Program-made: the position numbers and the translations under genes
Source: a virus
IMG/VR virus record: IMGVR_UViG_3300045988_107209
Location: 1-39,378 of that record
Strand: one strand, 5' to 3'
Length of the DNA: 39,378 bases
Part shown: positions 56-39,378 of the stretch, piece after piece
Layout: each line of letters begins with the position of its first letter
Numbering within the stretch: position 1 is the stretch's first letter
Notes under the pieces: generated by a model
Database searches by the model: none
Told to the model about the DNA's origin: nothing
Seen by the model: the letters and a program-made list of their open reading frames with translations, nothing else

Positions 56-72
56 GCACAAGAAGGATATAA
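1..72 (+). CDS. 3' end of the wrap-around ORF that starts at 39129. Small HTH-like DNA-binding protein, 89 aa in total.
   Basis: The reading frame from ATG 39129 continues through the overlap and stops at TAA 70..72. It contains the HTH-like stretch ITQGDLAEIIGCCSATVKTELNKLGV. Confidence 0.6.
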   Translation, partial: VINVLGLQPYLDNLIKLRSTRRI

Positions 73-99
73 AAAAGACCACTTATTAGGAAAGTGGCC
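71..99 (-). terminator. Rho-independent terminator oriented for leftward (minus-strand) transcription.
   Basis: Minus strand reads GGCCACTT-TCCTAAT-AAGTGGTC followed by TTTTTT. On the plus strand no T-run follows the hairpin. Confidence 0.45.
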
Positions 100-133
100 A
101 ATCAAAAATTAACAACTAAATTATAAACAAATA

Positions 134-153
134 ACTCAAATCTTGCAACCTGG
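134..153. repeat. Left arm of inverted repeat A (actcaaatcttgcaacctgg).
   Basis: Reverse complement of 358..377 with 18/20 matches. Both mismatches would be G-U pairs in a plus-strand RNA. Confidence 0.9.
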
Positions 154-192
154 GTATTGCCGTAAGTGACGGGGTCTGCTAAAAAAAGGATC

Positions 193-221
193 ATTATTTT
201 CATAATAGACCGATATCTCAA
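193..221 (-). promoter_or_regulatory. Sigma-70-like promoter on the minus strand (TTGAGA-N17-AATAAT).
   Basis: -35 at 221..216, 17-nt spacer, -10 at 198..193. It lies inside the segment bracketed by inverted repeat A. Confidence 0.35.
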
Positions 222-357
222 TACCTTCTTAAAAAATTGTCATAAATAATGCAAGCACGTCAGAAAAAAATCCATAATTGTAACTCGTAAAACTTCCTAA
301 GATAAAGCAAAAAAACACGTTTTAATTTGGGCATAAATAATCAGCAGACTGTGATAT

Positions 358-377
358 CCAGGTTGCAGGGTTTGAGT
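358..377. repeat. Right arm of inverted repeat A (ccaggttgcagggtttgagt).
   Basis: Pairs with 134..153. It ends 10 nt before the AAGGAG RBS of the early operon. Confidence 0.9.
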
Positions 378-29788: not shown

Positions 29789-31753
29789 ATGGCACAATTC
29801 AGTGGAAGTATAGGAATAAGCACAGGGCAAACAGACAAGTATTCGTTATTGTTGGATGTTTCAGAGAAATCTTATTCAATTGAAAATAACACATCTAAAG
29901 TTGAATGGTGGGTTGGTATTCGTTCAAATACTGCATACCATAATCACTATGGGTTGTCAGAAACTTATGTAGTTAATATCGATGGCACTGTAGTACACAA
30001 TGCAGTACATACACCTACAGTCAACAGTGGTGCTACTGTATGGGTAGCAAGTGGAACAACTACTGTATCACACAATGCAGATGGTTCTAAATCTATATCA
30101 GTCAGTGCATCGTTTGACAATGCAGACAGAGGAACATATTTACCAACGACAGGATCATGCAGTGGTAGTTTAAAGTTAACGACAATACCACGTGCAACTA
30201 CTCCTTCTATTGATAAACCGAGTTTAGATTGTGGTAGTGCAATTAAGATTAGTGGTACAAGTGCATCAAGCAACTTTTCGCATAAAGTTTATGTAACTTG
30301 GAATGGAACAAAAACACAAATAGGAACAATAGCTAGTGGTACAACAACCCCTAGCTTTTCTTATACCATTCCGACAGATTGGGAAAAGAATATTCCTGAT
30401 TCAACAAGTGGTATTGCTACATTTACATTAGAAACAATCAGTGGTTCAACGTCAGTTGGTTCTAAAACAGTAAATGCGACTATTAAAGTTAGAAGTAGTA
30501 TTGTTCCAACGATTGGAACTGTTGGTATTTCTGATACAAATTCAATTTGTGCAGGAATTGGACAATATGTTCAGAATCAATCGAAATTAAAATTCTCGAT
30601 TGCAACAAGTGGTAATCAAGGCTCAACGATCACATCAGTATCGACTAAATTCAATGGCCAAACATACAGTGGTAGCACATTTACAACTCAAGCGATTCAA
30701 AACAGTGGTACGTTAACTTACACAATCACAGTTACAGATTCACGTGGTCGTACTGCTACTAAGAGTGGTTCGGTATCTGTAGTTGCATACAATCCACCTA
30801 GTCTTACAAATATAAGTGCAAAGCGTGCTAACTCAGGCTATACAGTAGATGAATCAAGTGGTACGTATGCATTGCTACACTTCAAAGTTGGATTTACTAG
30901 TTTAAGTAATAAGAATGTAACATCATTCTATATTCAGTATCGAGCAAGCGGTGCTAGTTCGTGGACAAAAATTAATTCATGGGCTAATAACTACACTTTG
31001 GAACAAGATTACAAAGCAGGTAATTTATTTACCTCAACAACTACAACATATGAAATTGCATTCGGTGTTAAAGATAAATTTATGAGCGATTACTCATGGC
31101 AAATAGTTACAGTTACACCAACTTATACATTGATTAACTTTGGCAAAGATGGAAAATCATTAACTTTTTTCGGTCAAGATGGTAATAATGCTAACCGATT
31201 AACTGTTAATGGCGATTTAGTATCAAATAAATATAAATTCAGTTCAGTCAGTGAGAATACTTCATCAACTCATGTGTTGGTGGAGAATGGTAATGAAATT
31301 CAATATCGTGATTGGAATAAATTAGTTAATTCAATCAAGAGTGCGATGTATCCAGTAGGTTCAGTTTATATCACTTACAACAATGTCAACCCTGGCACAT
31401 TTTTAGGTGGAATATGGGAAAGATTCGGGCAAGGTAGAACTTTGGTCGGAGAAGGTACTGGGAATGATGGTAGTACAAGTATGTCCTTTACTGCGAATTC
31501 AACTGACGGAAAATACAAGAATACTCACTATCACGTAACTTCATTTGGTTGGGATGGAGATTATTTTTATGCAGGTAGACCAGACGGAGCAGTTAATAAT
31601 GCATACGACCGAACCTCAGTAATTCCAAATGGATATGGAATTCAAACTAGTTCTTTTATATCAAATCAAGTGCGATTGAATTGGACTGATAACTGTACTA
31701 TTGATAATGTACAACCATACATAGTTGTTTTCTTTTGGAGAAGGACCGCATAA
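29789..31753 (+). CDS. Receptor-binding tail fibre protein: DUF859-like N-terminus and tail-collar-like C-terminus. This is the expressed copy in the shufflon.
   Basis: MAQFSGSIGISTGQTDKYSLLLDVSEKSYSIENNTSKVEWW. C-terminus MYPVGSVYITYNNVNPGTFLGGIWERFGQGRTLVG...QPYIVVFFWRRTA. Confidence 0.8.
   Translation: MAQFSGSIGISTGQTDKYSLLLDVSEKSYSIENNTSKVEWWVGIRSNTAYHNHYGLSETYVVNIDGTVVHNAVHTPTVNSGATVWVASGTTTVSHNADGSKSISVSASFDNADRGTYLPTTGSCSGSLKLTTIPRATTPSIDKPSLDCGSAIKISGTSASSNFSHKVYVTWNGTKTQIGTIASGTTTPSFSYTIPTDWEKNIPDSTSGIATFTLETISGSTSVGSKTVNATIKVRSSIVPTIGTVGISDTNSICAGIGQYVQNQSKLKFSIATSGNQGSTITSVSTKFNGQTYSGSTFTTQAIQNSGTLTYTITVTDSRGRTATKSGSVSVVAYNPPSLTNISAKRANSGYTVDESSGTYALLHFKVGFTSLSNKNVTSFYIQYRASGASSWTKINSWANNYTLEQDYKAGNLFTSTTTTYEIAFGVKDKFMSDYSWQIVTVTPTYTLINFGKDGKSLTFFGQDGNNANRLTVNGDLVSNKYKFSSVSENTSSTHVLVENGNEIQYRDWNKLVNSIKSAMYPVGSVYITYNNVNPGTFLGGIWERFGQGRTLVGEGTGNDGSTSMSFTANSTDGKYKNTHYHVTSFGWDGDYFYAGRPDGAVNNAYDRTSVIPNGYGIQTSSFISNQVRLNWTDNCTIDNVQPYIVVFFWRRTA
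31479..31494 (+). repeat. Putative recombination site S0 (GTATGTCCTTTACTGC) inside the expressed fibre gene.
   Basis: Same 16-mer (GTATGTCNTTTACKGC) found inverted at three cassette starts. Lies exactly at the homology boundary. Confidence 0.75.
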
Positions 31754-31754
31754 A

Positions 31755-32009
31755 TTAAGCCGTCCTTTTCCAAAAATGTACTGTAATGTAAGGTTGAATG
31801 TTGTTATGAAATGCATCTTCACCTGTTTTAGATACATTAAATCCATATGCATTCGAGCCTTGAGTGATTGGTTTATTTTCTGCAAAAGGAGAACTTGTCT
31901 GTTTTGTTGAACCACCTCTAGCATATAATTTATGGTCATGACTTGGCATCTCATCTATAGTTAACTTATGTTTATATTCACCGCCAGTGCTATTGGCAGT
32001 AAATGACAT
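31755..32009 (-). other. Silent alternative fibre C-terminal cassette 1 (84 aa, canonical tail-collar tip).
   Basis: MSFTANSTGGEYKHKLTIDEMPSHDH...HNNIQPYITVHFWKRTA. No RBS. Its stop is 1 nt from the fibre gene stop. Confidence 0.8.
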
Positions 32010-32011
32010 AC
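31996..32011 (-). repeat. Putative recombination site S1.
   Basis: Minus strand reads GTATGTCATTTACTGC. Confidence 0.75.
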
Positions 32012-32233
32012 CTATGCAGTCCTACGCCAAAAGTAGACTGTAATGTATGGTTGCACTAAAGATACTTTTGCACTATGTTCTCTGCTACCATTTCCTACAT
32101 CAGAACTACGAACAATAGTACGTTCGGTGTAATATGTCGGGCCGTCGTTCTTTCTTAAACCATATTGTTTGTCCGAGCTATTAAGAACATCCGAGTAATA
32201 TTTACCACCTGTAGAATTCGCAGTAAAAGACAT
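32012..32233 (-). other. Silent alternative fibre C-terminal cassette 2 (73 aa).
   Basis: MSFTANSTGGKYYSD...LVQPYITVYFWRRTA. Separated from cassette 1 by 2 nt. No RBS. Confidence 0.8.
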
Positions 32234-32235
32234 AC
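32220..32235 (-). repeat. Putative recombination site S2.
   Basis: Minus strand reads GTATGTCTTTTACTGC. Identity to S0 extends through GCGAATTC. Confidence 0.75.
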
Positions 32236-32240
32236 CTTAA

Positions 32241-32441
32241 CTATTTAATTCTGTACCAAAAGTAGACAGTGATATAAGGTTGCAATAATGGTATCTTCGT
32301 TTTCATGTTTTTATTGTGATCATGAACACCCATTTGATTACCATTGCTATTAAGAAGTGCACCGTAATATATGTAACCTATATCATTACGTACCATAGAA
32401 TGAATGTACTCTCCGCCCGTGTCATTAGCCGTAAAAGACAT
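32241..32441 (-). other. Silent alternative fibre C-terminal cassette 3 (66 aa).
   Basis: MSFTANDTGGEYIHS...LLQPYITVYFWYRIK. The track ORF's upstream extension overlaps the recombinase 3' end and is not needed. Confidence 0.75.
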
Positions 32442-32443
32442 AC
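32428..32443 (-). repeat. Putative recombination site S3.
   Basis: Minus strand reads GTATGTCTTTTACGGC. Lies 5 nt from the recombinase stop codon. Confidence 0.7.
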
Positions 32444-32448
32444 ATTGA

Positions 32449-33342
32449 CTATTTGTAATAATCACAAAGCAGCTCAACACATTTTCGCTTTAATTCCATT
32501 TGTGGACGTACATAAATGTTCATTGTGATTGATACGTTGGAGTGGCCAAGCAATTCACTAAGTGATTTGTAGTCACATCCGCACTCAATGCATCTAGTGG
32601 CGAATGTATGTCGTAATGCGTGGAATTTGAGATGTGGTAGCTCAAGTTCTTTGAGGACTCTATTGTAGTAAAGTCTGTATTTGTTAGGTTCTATCGGCTT
32701 ATTTCGATTCGTTAATACATAGTTATCTGCATCACCTTGTAGAAGGATTGCGTAGTGCATTATCCATGTATTTAACGGAATCATTCGAGTACTGGAACGT
32801 GATTTAGGTGGTGTTATTGAAAGATGGCTACCATCTTCTTTGGTGTAGGTTCGTATCATGGTTTTGCTTATATTTAATAACTTGGTTTGAGTGTTTATAT
32901 CAGACCATTTTAAAGCGCACAGTTCACCTATGCGTATTCCTGTATGGATGCATAAAAGGATTCCAAAGTTTTTACAATTAATCTCAGATTGGAGGTGATT
33001 AATCAATGTTATTTGATTTTCTTTTTCAAAAATCTCTACCGCCTTAGAAGGATGGTATGGTAGTTGAATATCGACTTTGAATGGAAGTGTAAATTTTAAA
33101 ACCTGAATAATGTCTTTGGCATATTTGAATGATATACCACCTTTTCCGTCTTTACGGCCATTTTCAAGTTTTTGAAGAATAAACTCTTGTAAAATATCGT
33201 TATTCAAATCTTCAATCTGATAATTGCCTAGTTTTGGCATGATGTGATTGTGGATCACATTACAATAATTTGTGTAAGTGCTGTATTTTAGATAGATTTT
33301 CTTTTCCTTTAACCAGGATGTTAATTTGTCAGAATATAGCAT
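32449..33342 (-). CDS. Tyrosine site-specific recombinase (XerC/D/Rci-like size); candidate shufflon invertase.
   Basis: SAM-like N-terminal domain. Catalytic signature TGIRIGEL (R), HALRHTFAT (HxxR), LGHSNVSITMNIYV (H...Y). Confidence 0.9.
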   Translation of the reverse strand: MLYSDKLTSWLKEKKIYLKYSTYTNYCNVIHNHIMPKLGNYQIEDLNNDILQEFILQKLENGRKDGKGGISFKYAKDIIQVLKFTLPFKVDIQLPYHPSKAVEIFEKENQITLINHLQSEINCKNFGILLCIHTGIRIGELCALKWSDINTQTKLLNISKTMIRTYTKEDGSHLSITPPKSRSSTRMIPLNTWIMHYAILLQGDADNYVLTNRNKPIEPNKYRLYYNRVLKELELPHLKFHALRHTFATRCIECGCDYKSLSELLGHSNVSITMNIYVRPQMELKRKCVELLCDYYK

Positions 33343-34731: not shown

Positions 34732-35777
34732 CTAATAAGTACATTGTCGCAAGTCCTAACAACTATATGCGCGGTAGAGGAGGTTACAAAGTATGTAAGA
34801 TTACACCGCATCATATGGCTTGTAAATGGTCAGCAGAGACTTGTGCTAGATCATTTCAGGTAGCTGGAAGGGAAGCTAGTGCCAACTACTGTATTGGTTC
34901 AGATGGTACAATTGTTGCAAATGTTGATGAAGAAAATCGTGCATGGACATCAAGTAATTACTACAATGATTGTCAATCAATTACAATTGAAATTGCTAAC
35001 GATAATACAGATACGTGGACGATCTCACCTAAAGCATGGAATGCATTGGTAAATCTATGCGTGGATGTATGTAAACGATATGGATTCAGATTGAATTACA
35101 CTGGTAATGCGAATGGCAGCTTAACCGAACATAGAATGTTCGCAGCAACATCTTGTCCAGGCCCTTATTTACATTCTAAGATGAATCAATTAGCACAAGA
35201 AGTAAATGCTAGATTGGATGGTCAAACTGTAGCTCCAACACAACCAAGTACTCCAAGCGCTCCAAGTGGGGAGAAGTACTCTACTGGTACTCCAATTTGC
35301 ACAAATACATTAAGTGTAAATTGCTATGGTACAGGTAAAGTTTATAAAGGCGATTGGAATGGTACGATTGGTAGAGTGATTAAAGGTGCCAAATATCCGT
35401 ATCGTGTAGATCGTAATGGGGTAGCGATTGGATGGACAAATGATGCAGGAATTGATACAGACCCTCATATTCCTGGAGGAAGTACTCAATCAGTTCAAAC
35501 TGTTTTAAATGGTATTCCGTCAGATTTCAACAGAGAAAGTGCTACATTCTATCCAAATACAACTTTGAAGATTAGAAAAGCACCAACTGAAAAAGGAATT
35601 GACACAGGTTTATACTACAAGCAAGGAATGTCTGTTCGATATGACGGATATGTCAAACGTGAAGGATTCGTATGGATCAGTTGGATTAGTGCATCCACAG
35701 GTGAAAGAAGATGGATGAAAGCTGGCGCATTAAATTCAAAAGGATACAATACTAATCCATACGGAAGATTTGTTTAA
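34713..35777 (+). CDS. Endolysin: N-acetylmuramoyl-L-alanine amidase (Amidase_2/PGRP-like) with SH3-like cell-wall-binding domains.
   Basis: ITPHHMA, ANYCIGSDG, ITIEIAN, EHRMFAATSCPG. PST-rich linker. C-terminal FVWISWISASTGERRWMKAG. Confidence 0.85.
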   Translation: MSYSRLTNKYIVASPNNYMRGRGGYKVCKITPHHMACKWSAETCARSFQVAGREASANYCIGSDGTIVANVDEENRAWTSSNYYNDCQSITIEIANDNTDTWTISPKAWNALVNLCVDVCKRYGFRLNYTGNANGSLTEHRMFAATSCPGPYLHSKMNQLAQEVNARLDGQTVAPTQPSTPSAPSGEKYSTGTPICTNTLSVNCYGTGKVYKGDWNGTIGRVIKGAKYPYRVDRNGVAIGWTNDAGIDTDPHIPGGSTQSVQTVLNGIPSDFNRESATFYPNTTLKIRKAPTEKGIDTGLYYKQGMSVRYDGYVKREGFVWISWISASTGERRWMKAGALNSKGYNTNPYGRFV

Positions 35778-35906
35778 AATTTAATAAAATAAGTGTCAAA
35801 AACTCAAATATTGACACAAAACAGTACAAAATGTACGTAAAATGATTCAAAATATCAAAAAATGACACAAAAGTTGAACTAAACTATATTTTTAATGACT
35901 AAATCC

Positions 35907-35938
35907 GAGCCTACGTGTAATGCGTAGGTTCTTTTTTT
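35907..35938 (+). terminator. Rho-independent terminator ending the late operon.
   Basis: GAGCCTACG-TGTAATG-CGTAGGTTC followed by T7. Confidence 0.75.
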
Positions 35939-36020
35939 GTTGTGAAATTATAATAAAATTGAGATATAAATTATGTCTTGATTATATCTTGAAAAAAATT
36001 TAATATTTTAAACAAAACTA

Positions 36021-36049
36021 TTGAATTACGATGTTTAATATGTTAAAAT
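36021..36049 (+). promoter_or_regulatory. Near-consensus sigma-70 promoter with an extended -10 element.
   Basis: TTGAAT, 17-nt spacer ending TGt, then TAAAAT. Lies about 30 nt upstream of the xre-like gene. Confidence 0.65.
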
Positions 36050-36080
36050 CCAAGTGTACAAAAGAAAGGTGGTGATTGAG

Positions 36081-36281
36081 ATGGGATTCAAAATTAAGGA
36101 ATTGCGAGAAAAAGAAAATTTATCTCAGGCCGAATTGGCACAAAAATCAGGTGTATCACAAAATTTAATTGCCCGTTTAGAGAGTGGAGCTTTAACGAAT
36201 ACCACTACAGATACTCTTCTTAAAATATCTAAAGCATTAAATGTGAAAGTTGAGCAAATTTTTTTTACAGATAATGTTTAA
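36081..36281 (+). CDS. XRE-family HTH regulator (Cro/repressor-like, 66 aa).
   Basis: IKELREKENLSQAELAQKSGVSQNLIARLESG. Confidence 0.85.
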   Translation: MGFKIKELREKENLSQAELAQKSGVSQNLIARLESGALTNTTTDTLLKISKALNVKVEQIFFTDNV

Positions 36282-36330
36282 CATTTGCTGATAGTACTAC
36301 CAACGACTACCACAGAAATAAAACATAAGA

Positions 36331-36348
36331 CCGGTGCGGTACTTGAGG
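36331..36348 (+). repeat. Site D: third copy of the B-type ~20-nt motif (ccggtgcggtacttgagg).
   Basis: 15/18 identity to the reverse complement of 38468..38490. Lies immediately upstream of the RBS of the next ORF. Confidence 0.7.
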
Positions 36349-36368
36349 ATGGAGGAAAGGAAAAACAA

Positions 36369-36587
36369 ATGGAAGAAAATAAAGTAAAAAGTCTTATTGA
36401 CGCTTTAGATCTAGTGAACGAACAAATGGTACAGAAACAAGAAATAAGCACAATAGCCGTTGCCGTCAAGCTTGAGGGTTTGGATCAGGTAAACGAGGAA
36501 CTTGACAAAATGCTTATTAAATTAGAAAAAGCCAACTCATTGGCAGATGAATTGGCTTCAAAAATTAAAGACTTATGTTCAAAGTAA
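36369..36587 (+). CDS. Hypothetical coiled-coil protein.
   Basis: ATG 36369 preceded by GGAGGAAAGG. The upstream part of the track ORF has no RBS. Confidence 0.55.
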   Translation: MEENKVKSLIDALDLVNEQMVQKQEISTIAVAVKLEGLDQVNEELDKMLIKLEKANSLADELASKIKDLCSK

Positions 36588-36777
36588 TCTCAGATTTGCA
36601 ATGTGGGCAGACATTGCTACCTGAAGAAGCTTTGAAGGTATTGCCGCATTTAGGGCACTTTACGTCGATGCTTAGATTGTTGACTTGACTAGCAAGGTTT
36701 CTCTCTAAAGATTTTTGTAAGTCACGCTCAAGTCTACGCATATCTGATTTACTACCGATATTGTACTTTTTAGTCAT
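36565..36777 (-). CDS. Zinc-ribbon protein (CPKCG...CPHC).
   Basis: Strong RBS GGAAGGAGGTG. Two CPxC pairs. Confidence 0.75.
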   Translation of the reverse strand: MTKKYNIGSKSDMRRLERDLQKSLERNLASQVNNLSIDVKCPKCGNTFKASSGSNVCPHCKSEITLNISL

Positions 36778-36802
36778 TTATTACACCTCCTTCCAAAAGG
36801 AG

Positions 36803-36811
36803 ATTGTATCA
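36803..36811 (-). promoter_or_regulatory. Extended -10 promoter element TGaTACAAT (minus strand).
   Basis: Lies about 12 nt upstream of the RBS. Palindrome GTATGCTTGCAGCATAC (36831..36847) sits in the -35 zone. Confidence 0.45.
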
Positions 36812-36858
36812 CATAGAAAATCAGAAAAAGTATGCTTGCAGCATACAAAGGAGAATAT

Positions 36859-36984
36859 ATGCAGATTACAGTAATTCGAAAATCAGACAATTCAGTCATC
36901 ACTCGTATCTTTGAGGATGAAGAAGGAATCAAAGAGATCACGGATGATGATTATGAGGTCTTAATTGAAAAAGACTCGAATTAA
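36859..36984 (+). CDS. Small acidic protein (41 aa).
   Basis: RBS AAAGGAG. Followed by hairpin GACTCG-AATTAA-CGAGTC. Confidence 0.45.
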   Translation: MQITVIRKSDNSVITRIFEDEEGIKEITDDDYEVLIEKDSN

Positions 36985-36991
36985 CGAGTCC

Positions 36992-37246
36992 CTATTTATC
37001 TAGATTGTTGTTAGTGCTTTTATCTGGATTACTACGAATGAACTTAGTGCCATCAGAGTTCTTTACACCGTGATACCCATTTACTTCGCCTCTCACAGCT
37101 TTGTTGTAAGCTTGGGTATTCGTGTATACAACGCCGTTGATACTCACTCTGTTGTTTAGCCCAGTAGAAGTTTCTGAAACAACTTTAACTCTAGCTCTTG
37201 CCAGTTTGATCGTGTCGTTCTTTGTGTCAATGATCATAGGCAACAC
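36992..37246 (-). CDS. DUF3892-like protein.
   Basis: C-terminal GTKFIRSNPDKSTNNNLDK resembles the DUF3892 signature (YxRTxPDxxxxDNL). The start could be 37246 or 37237. Confidence 0.5.
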   Translation of the reverse strand: MLPMIIDTKNDTIKLARARVKVVSETSTGLNNRVSINGVVYTNTQAYNKAVRGEVNGYHGVKNSDGTKFIRSNPDKSTNNNLDK

Positions 37247-37345
37247 AGTCGGAATCCATTATCTGAACAAACATGATAAGGACTGGCAAAATATGCTGAA
37301 TAGAATACTGGATGACCTAAAAAAGCATACAAAGGGGGAATGAAC

Positions 37346-37543
37346 ATGAGCTTAAAAGTAGAACCCAAACAGGTTGATATTACAATCGACAACTATCAAA
37401 GAATCGAAAAGTTAAGCCAGGAGCTTCATGAAATGTTCGTAGACGGAGGCTTTAATATGGCTTTGGTAGAACAAAAAGAAGCTGAACTTCACAATGAAAT
37501 CCAGCTTTTAAAGAAAGTAAAGATTAGTGTAAGCCTTACTTAA
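37346..37543 (+). CDS. Hypothetical small protein.
   Basis: RBS AGGGGGAA before ATG 37346. Confidence 0.55.
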   Translation: MSLKVEPKQVDITIDNYQRIEKLSQELHEMFVDGGFNMALVEQKEAELHNEIQLLKKVKISVSLT

Positions 37544-38051
37544 CATTGATGCTAATGCCACCATCAGGTTCACGAATGACTTCTAAATTTGATTCTCCTG
37601 GGACATCTGGAAAAACATTTATAGTGTTTAGACTTGAAAAGTCTGTGTTTTTGATAAAACTACTAAGTTCACTTTTTGAAGTTTCGATACCATCTAGGTC
37701 CAGGCTATAAGACATGATACGAATATTTGAAATATCAAAAGGGTAGTTTGCTTTATATTCACAGTCCTGAATGATGATGTACGGTCTACCAAGGCCCATT
37801 CGGTAGCCTAGTTCAAGAAAGACATTAGGATTGTGACCCGTGATATCTACGATTACAAGGTCATCATCTTTTAAGTGGTTGAATATGTCATCTGTTAAAA
37901 CTGAAGTCTTAGCAATTTTATCTACTCGTATAGGTTCAAAATCTAATTCTGAGCATACTGGTTTCAACAGGTGCTTCAAAACTTGATCGGAATGAATACG
38001 AACTTCTGATCCTTTATCACCTATAGGAGTAACAAAAAAGCATTTACGCAT
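37536..38051 (-). CDS. Nucleoside 2-deoxyribosyltransferase-like / TIR-like Rossmannoid protein (171 aa).
   Basis: CFFVTPIG ... DDLVIVDITGHNPNVFLELGYRMGLGRPYIII. Strong RBS GGAAGGAGGTG before ATG 38051. Confidence 0.5.
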   Translation of the reverse strand: MRKCFFVTPIGDKGSEVRIHSDQVLKHLLKPVCSELDFEPIRVDKIAKTSVLTDDIFNHLKDDDLVIVDITGHNPNVFLELGYRMGLGRPYIIIQDCEYKANYPFDISNIRIMSYSLDLDGIETSKSELSSFIKNTDFSSLNTINVFPDVPGESNLEVIREPDGGISINVK

Positions 38052-38075
38052 ATAAATCACCTCCTTCCAGGATAG

Positions 38076-38084
38076 ATAGTATCA
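38076..38084 (-). promoter_or_regulatory. Extended -10 promoter element TGaTACTAT (minus strand).
   Basis: Same RBS/-10 block as at 36784..36811. Confidence 0.45.
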
Positions 38085-38121
38085 TTGAATTTTCAAAAGT
38101 GCACATAAACAAAAAAATTCT

Positions 38122-38143
38122 CTGGGCAGTACTTGAGGTGTCA
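38122..38143. repeat. Left arm of inverted repeat B (ctgggcagtacttgaggtgtca).
   Basis: Reverse complement of 38468..38490 with 2 transition mismatches and one 1-nt bulge. Confidence 0.9.
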
Positions 38144-38467
38144 TTTCAAGCATAGAAAGGAATAGATTCCATTAGTGCTCATTGCTATCGTCAAGAATCA
38201 TGGTTCTAGCGCTACCTACAAACATTCGCAGAATCTAGATTCTAAAACATGAGGTCCCCTTATCATACTGACATGGCAAAATCTGAATGACATGAAAATA
38301 TCTCTTGTTCGCAAATCAAAAGAAATAGACGCTGTTTTGTTTTTATCATAAAAGAATGAGGTGAAGAATCGCCTCCAAAACTAATTATTGCTCTAATATC
38401 TAAAAATTAATCGGACAAAAGTGTTCGCACACAAAACAGTGACCTAATCATGTTGATAAGTAAGAAG

Positions 38468-38490
38468 TGGCACCTCAAGTGCTGCACCAG
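38468..38490. repeat. Right arm of inverted repeat B (tggcacctcaagtgctgcaccag).
   Basis: Pairs with 38122..38143. Both mismatches would be G-U pairs in a plus-strand RNA. Confidence 0.9.
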
Positions 38491-38536
38491 AACATAGTAG
38501 AACATAGTAGAACGCAGTAGAAAGGAGTAGAACATG
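38489..38536 (+). repeat. 4.8 tandem copies of a 10-nt unit (AGAACATAGT, AGAACATAGT, AGAACGCAGT, AGAAAGGAGT, AGAACATG).
   Basis: Read directly from the sequence. The fourth unit supplies the RBS and the fifth the ATG of the next gene. Confidence 0.9.
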
Positions 38537-38845
38537 CAAGAATTATTACCTATTGGAAGTGTCGTGGTTCTTAAAGAAGGAACAAAGAAGTTGATGATTA
38601 TCGGAAGACTTCAAGCAAATCCTAAAACAAAGAATCTCTACGACTATGCAGGATGTCCATGGCCAGAAGGCTATATGGATAAGGAACATTGCTACGTATT
38701 CAATCACGATGATATTGATCTTCTTTATTATCTAGGAATGCAGGATATAGAAGAGTTCAATTTCAGATTCAAATTGGATGAAGCAATCGAAAAAATAGAA
38801 AGTGAAGGATATAAACATGCCAAGAGCAAACACATCAGCCAATAA
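38534..38845 (+). CDS. DUF4176-like protein.
   Basis: LLPIGSVVVLKEGTKKLMIIGR...YDYAGCPWPEGY...YVFNHDDIDLLYYLG. Confidence 0.6.
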   Translation: MQELLPIGSVVVLKEGTKKLMIIGRLQANPKTKNLYDYAGCPWPEGYMDKEHCYVFNHDDIDLLYYLGMQDIEEFNFRFKLDEAIEKIESEGYKHAKSKHISQ

Positions 38846-39113
38846 AGCAACAGCTGCGAAAAAAAGAACTGTAAAAAAAACAGATGAAATCAAAGAACAA
38901 CAATGTGAATTGGCTCCGTTTGCAAACAATTCACATGAAACAGAGTATACAAGAATGATGCACAGATACTCTGAACTGGATAAAAGAGAGAAGGCAGTGC
39001 GCAGAAAGCAGCGTTTCGCAAACTGGATGTTATTTGCGAGTGTTGTGTTAGTGATTGGATGTATGATCGCTACTGCGTTTGTATGTACGACCATCCAGTC
39101 TATTCGACTGTAG
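38817..39113 (+). CDS. Small basic protein with a C-terminal transmembrane helix.
   Basis: RBS GAAGGA before ATG 38817. Transmembrane segment WMLFASVVLVIGCMIATAFVC. Confidence 0.6.
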   Translation: MPRANTSANKATAAKKRTVKKTDEIKEQQCELAPFANNSHETEYTRMMHRYSELDKREKAVRRKQRFANWMLFASVVLVIGCMIATAFVCTTIQSIRL

Positions 39114-39128
39114 AAAGGAGTTCAGCTT

Positions 39129-39378
39129 ATGAAGAATATTAGAACAGTCTCTTGTATGGAATATGATGCAGAAGTTGAGGACAAGATCCAGAAGCTTACA
39201 AAGTATGCATATATCACGCAGGGAGACTTGGCAGAGATTATTGGATGTTGCAGCGCAACGGTTAAGACTGAGTTGAATAAGCTTGGCGTTCAATCCAATT
39301 GTTTCGGATGGCCAACCGCAAAGGTAATTAATGTTCTTGGCTTGCAGCCTTATTTGGATAACCTGATCAAGCTGCGTA
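39129..39378 (+). CDS. 5' part of the wrap-around HTH-like ORF (continues at 56..72 of the circular molecule).
   Basis: RBS AAAGGAG before ATG 39129. The ORF is still open at the window end and continues through the overlap. Confidence 0.6.
   Translation, partial: MKNIRTVSCMEYDAEVEDKIQKLTKYAYITQGDLAEIIGCCSATVKTELNKLGVQSNCFGWPTAKVINVLGLQPYLDNLIKLR
39324..39378. repeat. Second copy of the 55-bp terminal overlap.
   Basis: Identical to 1..55. Confidence 0.95.

Follow-up and report, generated by a model that had tools for sequence, protein, structure and literature searches.

Intergenic repeats in the early control region of a siphophage probably form two long-range RNA helices on the plus strand

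Introduction

What keeps a handful of related sequences of about 20 nucleotides (nt) in place in the non-coding DNA of a phage control region? The question is raised by IMG/VR virus record IMGVR_UViG_3300045988_107209, which was analysed over its full length of 39,378 nt (the window). The window was assembled as a circle with a terminal duplication of 55 nt and represents a siphophage genome. The sites are spread over about 4 kb, from the endolysin gene across the circle junction to the recombination/replication module (YqaJ exonuclease, RecT, RusA, replisome organiser and SSB). A reading of the letters without database searches, hereafter the original prediction, had proposed five to six related sites (A-left, A-right, B-left, B-right, D and a more diverged copy) with three possible roles: (i) operators of a helix-turn-helix (HTH) protein; (ii) targets of the phage tyrosine recombinase; and (iii) an RNA-level motif in 5' leaders. 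The reading favoured here, with a probability of roughly 0.6, is that four of the sites are the arms of two RNA helices of 26–34 bp in the plus-strand early transcript, which likely serve as cut or insulation points.

Results

The sites are two inverted-repeat pairs and an orphan copy

All sequences listed in the original prediction were found where it had placed them. They lack dyad symmetry, in agreement with their description as not internally palindromic, and the spacing to the ribosome-binding sites (RBSs) of the genes at 404, 36369 and 38534 was also as claimed. The core GCNGNRYTTGAG has four exact matches, versus 0.19 expected. Matches to the pattern GCRRNRYTTGAG in the 39 kb are limited to A-left, A-right, D, B-left and B-right, and this genome-wide scan supports the restriction to intergenic DNA. 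With one mismatch allowed, 16 matches were obtained versus 7.4 expected; the 11 extra ones are scattered in coding DNA and correspond to chance level. When the exact motif was looked for in about 100 related contigs, every match fell at a homologous D, B or A position; the sites are conserved in related phages. Five members of the proposed family are therefore real, statistically unexpected and conserved, but the sixth (35802–35817) was dropped: it fits the core only if a mismatch is allowed, lacks a partner to pair with (best −14 kcal/mol) and is regarded as chance. That segment falls within a direct repeat (TCAAAA..TGACACAAAA; copies at 35796–35821 and 35847–35872, 51 nt apart) after the endolysin gene, and a strong plus-strand terminator (35907–35931) lies behind the repeat. 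Four IMG/VR matches were rejected as unrelated: three contigs matched the 17-mer of A-right in coding DNA (L068, in a repetitive protein gene, L073 and L087), and L080 has no homology to the region.

The five sites are not equivalent and independent copies, as their presentation as one family had implied. A repeat finder returned the inverted-repeat pairs 134–157/354–377 and 38126–38147/38464–38485, so that four sites make up two pairs (A and B) and the fifth, D, is an orphan copy. Watson-Crick complementarity is 24 nt at 88% for the A pair and 22 nt at 86% for the B pair, and with wobble pairs these become helices of 25–27 bp. Outside the tail-fibre cassettes A and B are the best inverted repeats of the genome. 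The consensus of the original prediction is not the conserved entity, because A-type and B-type arms have 9 of 12 core positions in common and no more, and because a variant of A (A2, below) is without TTGAG. The arms and the segments that they enclose are as follows (MFE, minimum free energy; SD, Shine-Dalgarno sequence).

134..158, plus strand: A 5' arm (A-left), one half of the inverted repeat; it pairs with 353–377 in the MFE fold and is the 5' strand of a 25-bp closing helix.
353..377, plus strand: A 3' arm (A-right), seen in the MFE fold and as inverted repeat; its 3' end lies 11 nt upstream of the SD of the gene at 404.
173..180, plus strand: inner extension of helix A, GGTCTGCT; partner 343–350 in the MFE fold.
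343..350, plus strand: partner strand of the extension, AGCAGACT; in the MFE fold and in the joint A1+A2 consensus structure.
159..352, plus strand: A spacer, A/U-rich and non-coding; its most conserved internal block is AGCACGTCAGAAAAAAAT.
38121..38147, plus strand: B 5' arm (B-left); it pairs with 38464–38491 in the MFE fold, with one bulged base.
38464..38491, plus strand: B 3' arm (B-right), seen in the MFE fold and as inverted repeat; it ends about 30 nt upstream of the SD of the DUF4176 gene (ATG 38534).
38148..38463, plus strand: B interior, non-coding and structured on the plus strand; type 1 in the window.

Pairing is specific to the plus strand and is kept in evolution

The mismatches between the arms are without exception G·U wobbles on the plus strand and A·C clashes on the minus strand. 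For 36 distinct arm pairs of B the mean duplex stability was −47.5 kcal/mol on the plus strand versus −34.0 kcal/mol on the minus strand; for 23 distinct arm pairs of A the means were −44.9 and −30.4 kcal/mol. The plus-strand duplex was the more stable one in all 59 arm pairs (36 B and 23 A). It exceeded the minus-strand duplex by 13–17 kcal/mol in 22 of the 23 A variants; the margin was only 1 kcal/mol in L023, which belongs to a lineage with an inverted A spacer. Plus-strand duplexes contain 2–5 G·U pairs each, and minus-strand duplexes 0–1, save for 3 in this same variant.

Sequence variation among the relatives preserves the pairing. For helix B (19 distinct arm pairs) the plus strand has standard pairs in all 399 of 399 cells, and 9 of the 21 base pairs vary, as in the series GC:15 / GU:2 / AU:2 and UG:13 / CG:5 / UA:1. 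In shuffle controls the number of paired cells and the covariation score of helix B were each reached in 9 of 500 shuffles. For helix A, 15 further contigs carry the A2 variant (arms TCTCGGGTTCTGCAACCTGGGTATCAC / GTGGTATCTAGGTTGCAGGATTCGAGA, spacer of 123 nt). Here TTCGAG stands in place of the shared TTTGAG and the partner arm is changed so as to compensate; several other positions have shifted between Watson-Crick and wobble pairing. In the joint A1+A2 consensus structure there are 34 pairs, of which 8 are changed on both sides and 8 on one side, with 13 of 2210 cells broken; the structure scores −50.4 on the plus strand versus −21.0 on the minus strand. It retains 7 bp of the inner extension, including compensatory pairs such as UA:56 / CG:9. 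Folding of single sequences gave z scores of −6.1 (plus) and −4.0 (minus) for A, and −7.6 (plus) and −2.6 (minus) for B.

Since the wobble asymmetry, the pair-keeping variation, the consensus scores and the folds agree, the conserved entity is taken to be plus-strand pairing, that is, RNA helices. Strand-specific pairing and its maintenance in evolution are established by these sequence comparisons. The proposal of an RNA-level motif in 5' leaders was thus correct as to the level, but the unit is a long-range two-arm duplex on the plus-strand transcript and not a single-stranded leader motif. All sites lie downstream of a cro-like gene, inside the rightward-transcribed early operon, and a terminator scan found no plus-strand terminator between the arms. 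It is plausible from the same-strand operon context that both arms of a helix would be present on one transcript.

The same data bear on the proposed operator network, in which the 20-nt sites would be double-stranded DNA sites for the Xre/Cro-like or the 89-residue HTH protein, and paired sites would loop the promoter-bearing intergenic DNA. Confinement to the control region near gene starts would suit operators, as would the near invariance of the arms beyond what pairing alone requires, and asymmetric operators exist, for instance the stoperators of mycobacteriophage L5. However, operator sequences are expected to co-vary with their regulator, and the arms are identical across relatives in which the regulators have been replaced (different Cro types, CI with or without the S24 peptidase domain, and a different HTH gene upstream of A). 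Pairing rather than sequence is conserved: the A2 variant alters the shared core and retains the helix, and all substitutions are wobble-compatible on one strand only. The sites also lack dyad symmetry, and a separate pair of palindromes around the cro promoter (35999–36014 / 36032–36047) is a better operator candidate. An operator role of the arms is, on this evidence, very improbable. The palindromes themselves (TTTAATATTTTAAACA / TGTTTAATATGTTAAA, 35999–36047) bracket a promoter-like TTGAAT-N17-TAAAAT with an upstream TG, before the cro-like gene.

Helix A and the inverted lineage

Helix A is predicted to consist of 25 bp plus an extension of 7–8 bp, enclosing a spacer of 123–200 nt, and is located between the early regulatory genes and the recombination/replication module. 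The arms are nearly invariant in the relatives, in contrast to the flanking genes and even the sequence between the arms, which are swapped; upstream of A, and also between D and B, the genes form shuffled cassettes. The identity of the A spacer among relatives is 73–98%, and in the A2 variant the spacer is replaced by the 123-nt version. The spacer alone has no significant structure on either strand (z scores of −0.7 and −1.4).

One lineage (L023/L058 and L025/L059; two contigs, two assemblies) carries the A spacer in the opposite orientation, reversed exactly between the arms, and polymorphisms place the crossover within CCAGGTTGCA. Such an inversion would be expected if a site-specific recombinase, for example the tyrosine recombinase on the fibre side, flipped the A and B segments and thereby turned promoters towards or away from the downstream early genes. 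The segments are indeed flanked by inverted repeats (24 nt at 88% in A, 22 nt at 86% in B), the window encodes a tyrosine recombinase beside three alternative C-terminal fibre cassettes, and there are promoter-like hexamers inside the A spacer and a minus-strand terminator just outside it. However, the inverted A is a single case among 37 distinct A units (IMG/VR and metagenomes), 40 informative metagenome loci and 10 integrated prophages, or one lineage among about 100 contigs with the prophages included, and B is never inverted. No cognate invertase accompanies the arms: contig 130080 (39.5 kb) has all A and B arms without recombinase and cassettes, and many other near-complete relatives are absent from the recombinase matches. 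The fibre sites (GTATGTCnTTTACnGCnAAT) have only about TCAnnTnCnGC in common with the arms, as the original prediction had largely noted, and nothing in common with the CCAGGTTGCA crossover region. Strand-specific wobble and compensatory changes have no explanation at the DNA level, and RecT together with the YqaJ exonuclease of the phage could produce a rare inversion between 25-bp repeats. Neither inverted forms of B nor inversions between D and B-right were seen: no minus-strand relationships were found among the B interiors or across 33.3–38.1 kb. Recombinase targets are thus hard to reconcile with the data, and we consider this role highly unlikely.

The recombinase (297 residues; 32449–33342, minus strand) plainly serves the fibre cassettes, which it follows. 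The fibre gene (29789–31753) has a 45-nt inverted repeat in common with three silent minus-strand cassettes (31755–32009, 32012–32233 and 32241–32480). Each cassette encodes an alternative C-terminus, with a start MSFTAN... and an end ...QPYITVYFW.... The whole shufflon (31471–33342) is present in some relatives and absent from others.

A candidate antisense RNA beside helix A

Two minus-strand features overlap or adjoin the A 5' arm.

120..148, minus strand: promoter-like TTGCAA-N17-TATAAT that matches at 10 of 12 positions, with its −35 hexamer within the A 5' arm.
77..99, minus strand: intrinsic terminator, which would end an antisense RNA of about 45 nt begun at 148..120.

Together they would specify a minus-strand RNA of about 45 nt (window positions 72–148) at a position like that of lambda OOP, which is a lead and not a finding. 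The promoter spacing is kept in the A2 variant as TTGCAG-N17-TATAAT. The terminator hairpin (99..77) has a G·U pair on the minus strand that is an A·C clash on the plus strand, and it folds better on the minus strand in all variants checked. Promoter scans returned as many matches as expected by chance. In a survey across the relatives no consistent plus-strand promoter was found inside A or B; only minus-strand candidates recurred. A minus-strand promoter might explain part of the sequence conservation of the A arms.

These features invite the idea of an antisense circuit, in which a small minus-strand RNA, or the leaders that carry the 3' arms, would pair with an arm, decide whether the helix forms and so gate the replication module, with D as a second target. 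In its favour are the promoter spacing, which the two A variants have in common, a terminator hairpin that is better suited to the minus strand, the position of the arms, which end 3–30 nt upstream of RBSs, and the fact that the B 3' arm is the best partner of D in 15 of the 16 relatives tested. It is weakened by the promoter calls, which are weak in AT-rich DNA and number what chance would give, and by B, for which no such circuit is evident. Moreover, an antisense circuit would elaborate the helix model rather than replace it. We regard it as unlikely.

OOP of lambda is alike in being a short minus-strand RNA with its own promoter and terminator at the junction of early regulation and replication, between cII and O, and in overlapping the 3' end region of the upstream message. 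It differs in that the candidate here is only predicted and would be about 45 nt versus 77 nt for OOP; the link of the candidate to helix A is conjecture.

Helix B closes an exchangeable structured segment

Helix B is predicted to have 26–27 bp with one bulge and closes a segment of 240–450 nt in front of the DUF4176 gene. Between the same arms four types of interior were found; the whole units, arms and a few adjoining bases included, have lengths of 381 nt (type 1, as in the window), 336–342 nt (type 1b), 450–493 nt (type 2) and 287–289 nt (type 3). Across all four types the closing helix has 0 of 1629 cells broken. The interior alone folds on the plus strand (z score of −2.83) and not on the minus strand (+0.60). 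Types 1 and 1b together give a consensus fold of 75 pairs with 19 one-sided changes and 6 of 2841 cells broken, scoring −73 on the plus strand versus −38 on the minus strand. No common interior structure was obtained across the four types, as the alignment is too poor, and the closing helix alone is shared. L001 has its B unit immediately between two genes of the plus strand, a placement that fits an intercistronic RNA element. No analogous repeats were found in the more distant DUF4176 phages L034 and L035.

Other explanations of the interior were discarded. Small open reading frames (ORFs) were rejected, their minus-strand peptides not being conserved between types, and tRNA-like words received no support from a tRNA/tmRNA scan, which was empty. 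Two short sequences are common to otherwise diverged B interiors: a near-palindrome CTTTTCGCAAAAG (for example in L007 and L032; CTTGTTCGCAAATC in the window, 38323–38335) and an SD-like UAGAAAGGAA, which lies in the first hairpin's loop. A tandem array of four to five 10-nt units like GTAGAACATA (38484–38542) extends from the B 3' arm to the RBS and start codon of the DUF4176 gene, and a similar array is present in L001.

The exchange of interiors could also mean that the units are mobile or exchangeable modules bounded by inverted repeats, comparable to miniature inverted-repeat transposable elements (MITEs) or to Correia, ERIC and RUP elements; the arms would then be terminal repeats that serve insertion or exchange, and RNA folding a by-product. 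The arms do lie exactly at mosaic break-points, the interiors within the same B arms are unrelated or diverged, the sequence of B type 1 stays 98.7% identical in backgrounds with flanks of 84–99% identity, and D resembles a stranded arm copy. However, the dispersed copies, empty sites and target-site duplications that mark MITEs were not seen: arm scans of IMG/VR returned only the same loci of this phage group plus chance matches in coding DNA, no empty site was found, no target-site duplication is visible, and no transposase is associated. The strand-specific wobble, moreover, means selection on the RNA itself. Mobility as the reason for the arms is therefore improbable. Correia, ERIC, RUP and BOX elements are alike in that their terminal inverted repeats fold as RNA hairpins in mRNAs, can be substrates of RNase III and carry promoter hexamers in their ends. 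They differ in being dispersed, multi-copy and present or absent per site, whereas the A and B units are single-copy, occupy the same two syntenic positions throughout and are confined to one phage group.

Site D

The fifth site stands apart from the two helices.

36331..36348, plus strand: D, orphan copy of the B 5' arm, 3 nt upstream of the SD of the gene at 36369.

Over 16–17 nt D has the same sequence as the 5' arm of B type 1b. On the plus strand it pairs most stably with the B 3' arm, both in the window and in the 15 relatives mentioned above (−29 to −35 kcal/mol), at a distance of 0.9–2.1 kb. Some D variants carry substitutions that break this pairing, and no D-like site was found in 20 relatives. 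We interpret D as a copy of the B 5' arm that is either an alternative to it or was stranded at a point of cassette insertion. The segment between D and the B 5' arm (36349–38120) is a cassette-like mosaic of small genes in both orientations, the content of which differs in almost every relative; among the encoded proteins are a 171-residue PHROG 3634 protein (no Pfam match), a Zn-ribbon protein and a DUF3892 protein. An RBS-bearing linker (36782–36861) is re-used near 37324, with AGCATACAAAGG at 36840 and 37324.

The phage and its relatives

No relative of the control region was found among GenBank phages by distant blastn; relatives are numerous among IMG/VR and metagenome contigs. Searches with terminase and recombinase place the phage among uncultured human-faecal and Firmicutes phages, and no closer. 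A scan of genome contigs with the A arm gave chance matches, with zero prophages among the matches listed. At gathering score Rfam 15 had zero matches in the whole window, and at E ≤ 10 over 35700–39378 and 1–600 the matches were at chance level only. In the literature on phage invertons and long-range repeats nothing was found on these elements. The predicted pair of long-range RNA helices is lineage-specific and not described in databases.

Because relatives encode an integrase, a CI-type repressor (with an S24 peptidase domain in some) and a Cro-type gene just upstream of site D, the family is judged from gene content to be temperate. Integrase and CI are not present in the window phage itself. 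Its interval from the endolysin to the cro-like gene is only about 300 bp (35778–36080), and in relatives the same interval (L016:958–3830, L023:689–3621) is filled by integrase, accessory genes and the CI repressor. The window phage looks like a derivative without the lysogeny module. Downstream of helix A, a 20-codon ORF with a good RBS (404–466) overlaps out of frame with the start of a 252-codon ORF (435/441 onward), and the overlap crosses a run of seven A residues; the arrangement may reflect a leader peptide, a frameshift or an assembly error.

Discussion

What could two such helices do? The substrate of bacterial RNase III is double-stranded RNA about two helical turns long, examples being the stems of rRNA operons, the early sites of T7 and sib of lambda. 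The predicted helices A and B offer at least 20 bp of near-uninterrupted duplex with stabilities of −43 to −51 kcal/mol, and the pairing of the transcribed strand has been kept up in evolution (100% of cells paired in B, 8 compensatory pairs in A). Because RNase III is known to cut double-stranded RNA of this length, we infer that the helices would be cut by it, and by analogy A and B would be substrates of the host enzyme. Cutting would split the early polycistronic RNA into separate units and would set the 5' ends, and hence the stability and translation, of the cistrons that begin 10–45 nt downstream; at helix B it would in addition free the enclosed structured RNA. Processing of the RNase III type, or insulation of the early RNA, is on this analogy the most likely role.

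Known RNase III helices (the 16S/23S rRNA stems, T7 early sites, lambda sib and N-leader, SP82 early sites) are alike in being long, near-perfect RNA duplexes in a polycistronic transcript, situated between cistrons or around structured RNA, with wobble and compensatory upkeep on the transcribed strand only. The phage examples differ in that they are local hairpins of about 60 nt, whereas the arms here are 200–450 nt apart, as in rRNA operons. Further differences are that A encloses promoter-like DNA and B an exchangeable structured domain, that cleavage is only presumed for A and B, and that their arm sequences are conserved far above the known requirement of RNase III.

Several observations weigh against the helix model. 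Formation of the helices in vivo, a transcript spanning both arms and cleavage are so far predictions from sequence and folds, and the covariation is based on closely related sequences. In the shuffle controls of helix B the number of both-sided changes was reached in 187 of 500 shuffles and that of pair types in 129 of 500. The near invariance of the arms exceeds what pairing needs, which suggests an added constraint on sequence, for example by a protein or a minus-strand promoter. Site D has no nearby partner and has variants that break its pairing, and its conservation beside an RBS falls outside the model. Finally, the A spacer may have a role at the DNA level, since helix A encloses promoter-like sequences.

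A more speculative extension, which we put forward as doubtful, is that the B unit would be a free phage RNA of about 290–490 nt (in four types), excised at its closing helix and acting on its own, for example in host takeover or in the lysis-lysogeny decision, and that helix A and the OOP-like antisense RNA would form a switch gating the replication module.

The comparison with DNA inversion carries a caution. Like fimS, hin, the capsule promoters of Bacteroides, Mu Gin and P1 Cin, the A and B units have short inverted repeats around a non-coding segment of 200–450 bp upstream of genes, one lineage has a precise inversion, and a recombinase-driven fibre shufflon is present in the same genome. 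Unlike in these systems, no cognate recombinase travels with the A and B sites, the orientation is fixed in about 99% of contigs, and the repeat mismatches obey RNA pairing rules. In screens for invertons, intergenic inverted repeats, one inverted lineage and a recombinase can thus mimic an inverton while selection acts on RNA pairing.

Overall, the early control region of this phage group, which is common in human-gut metagenomes (the exact DUF4176 protein beside helix B is recorded in 514 assembly-collection blocks), carries two strongly conserved predicted RNA structures that are in no database. Should they be processing sites, they would illustrate how the mosaic early operon of a Firmicutes prophage, with its many swapped modules, is divided into messages under separate control. 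The B interior, if it exists as a free RNA, would represent a new class of phage non-coding RNA with allelic types.

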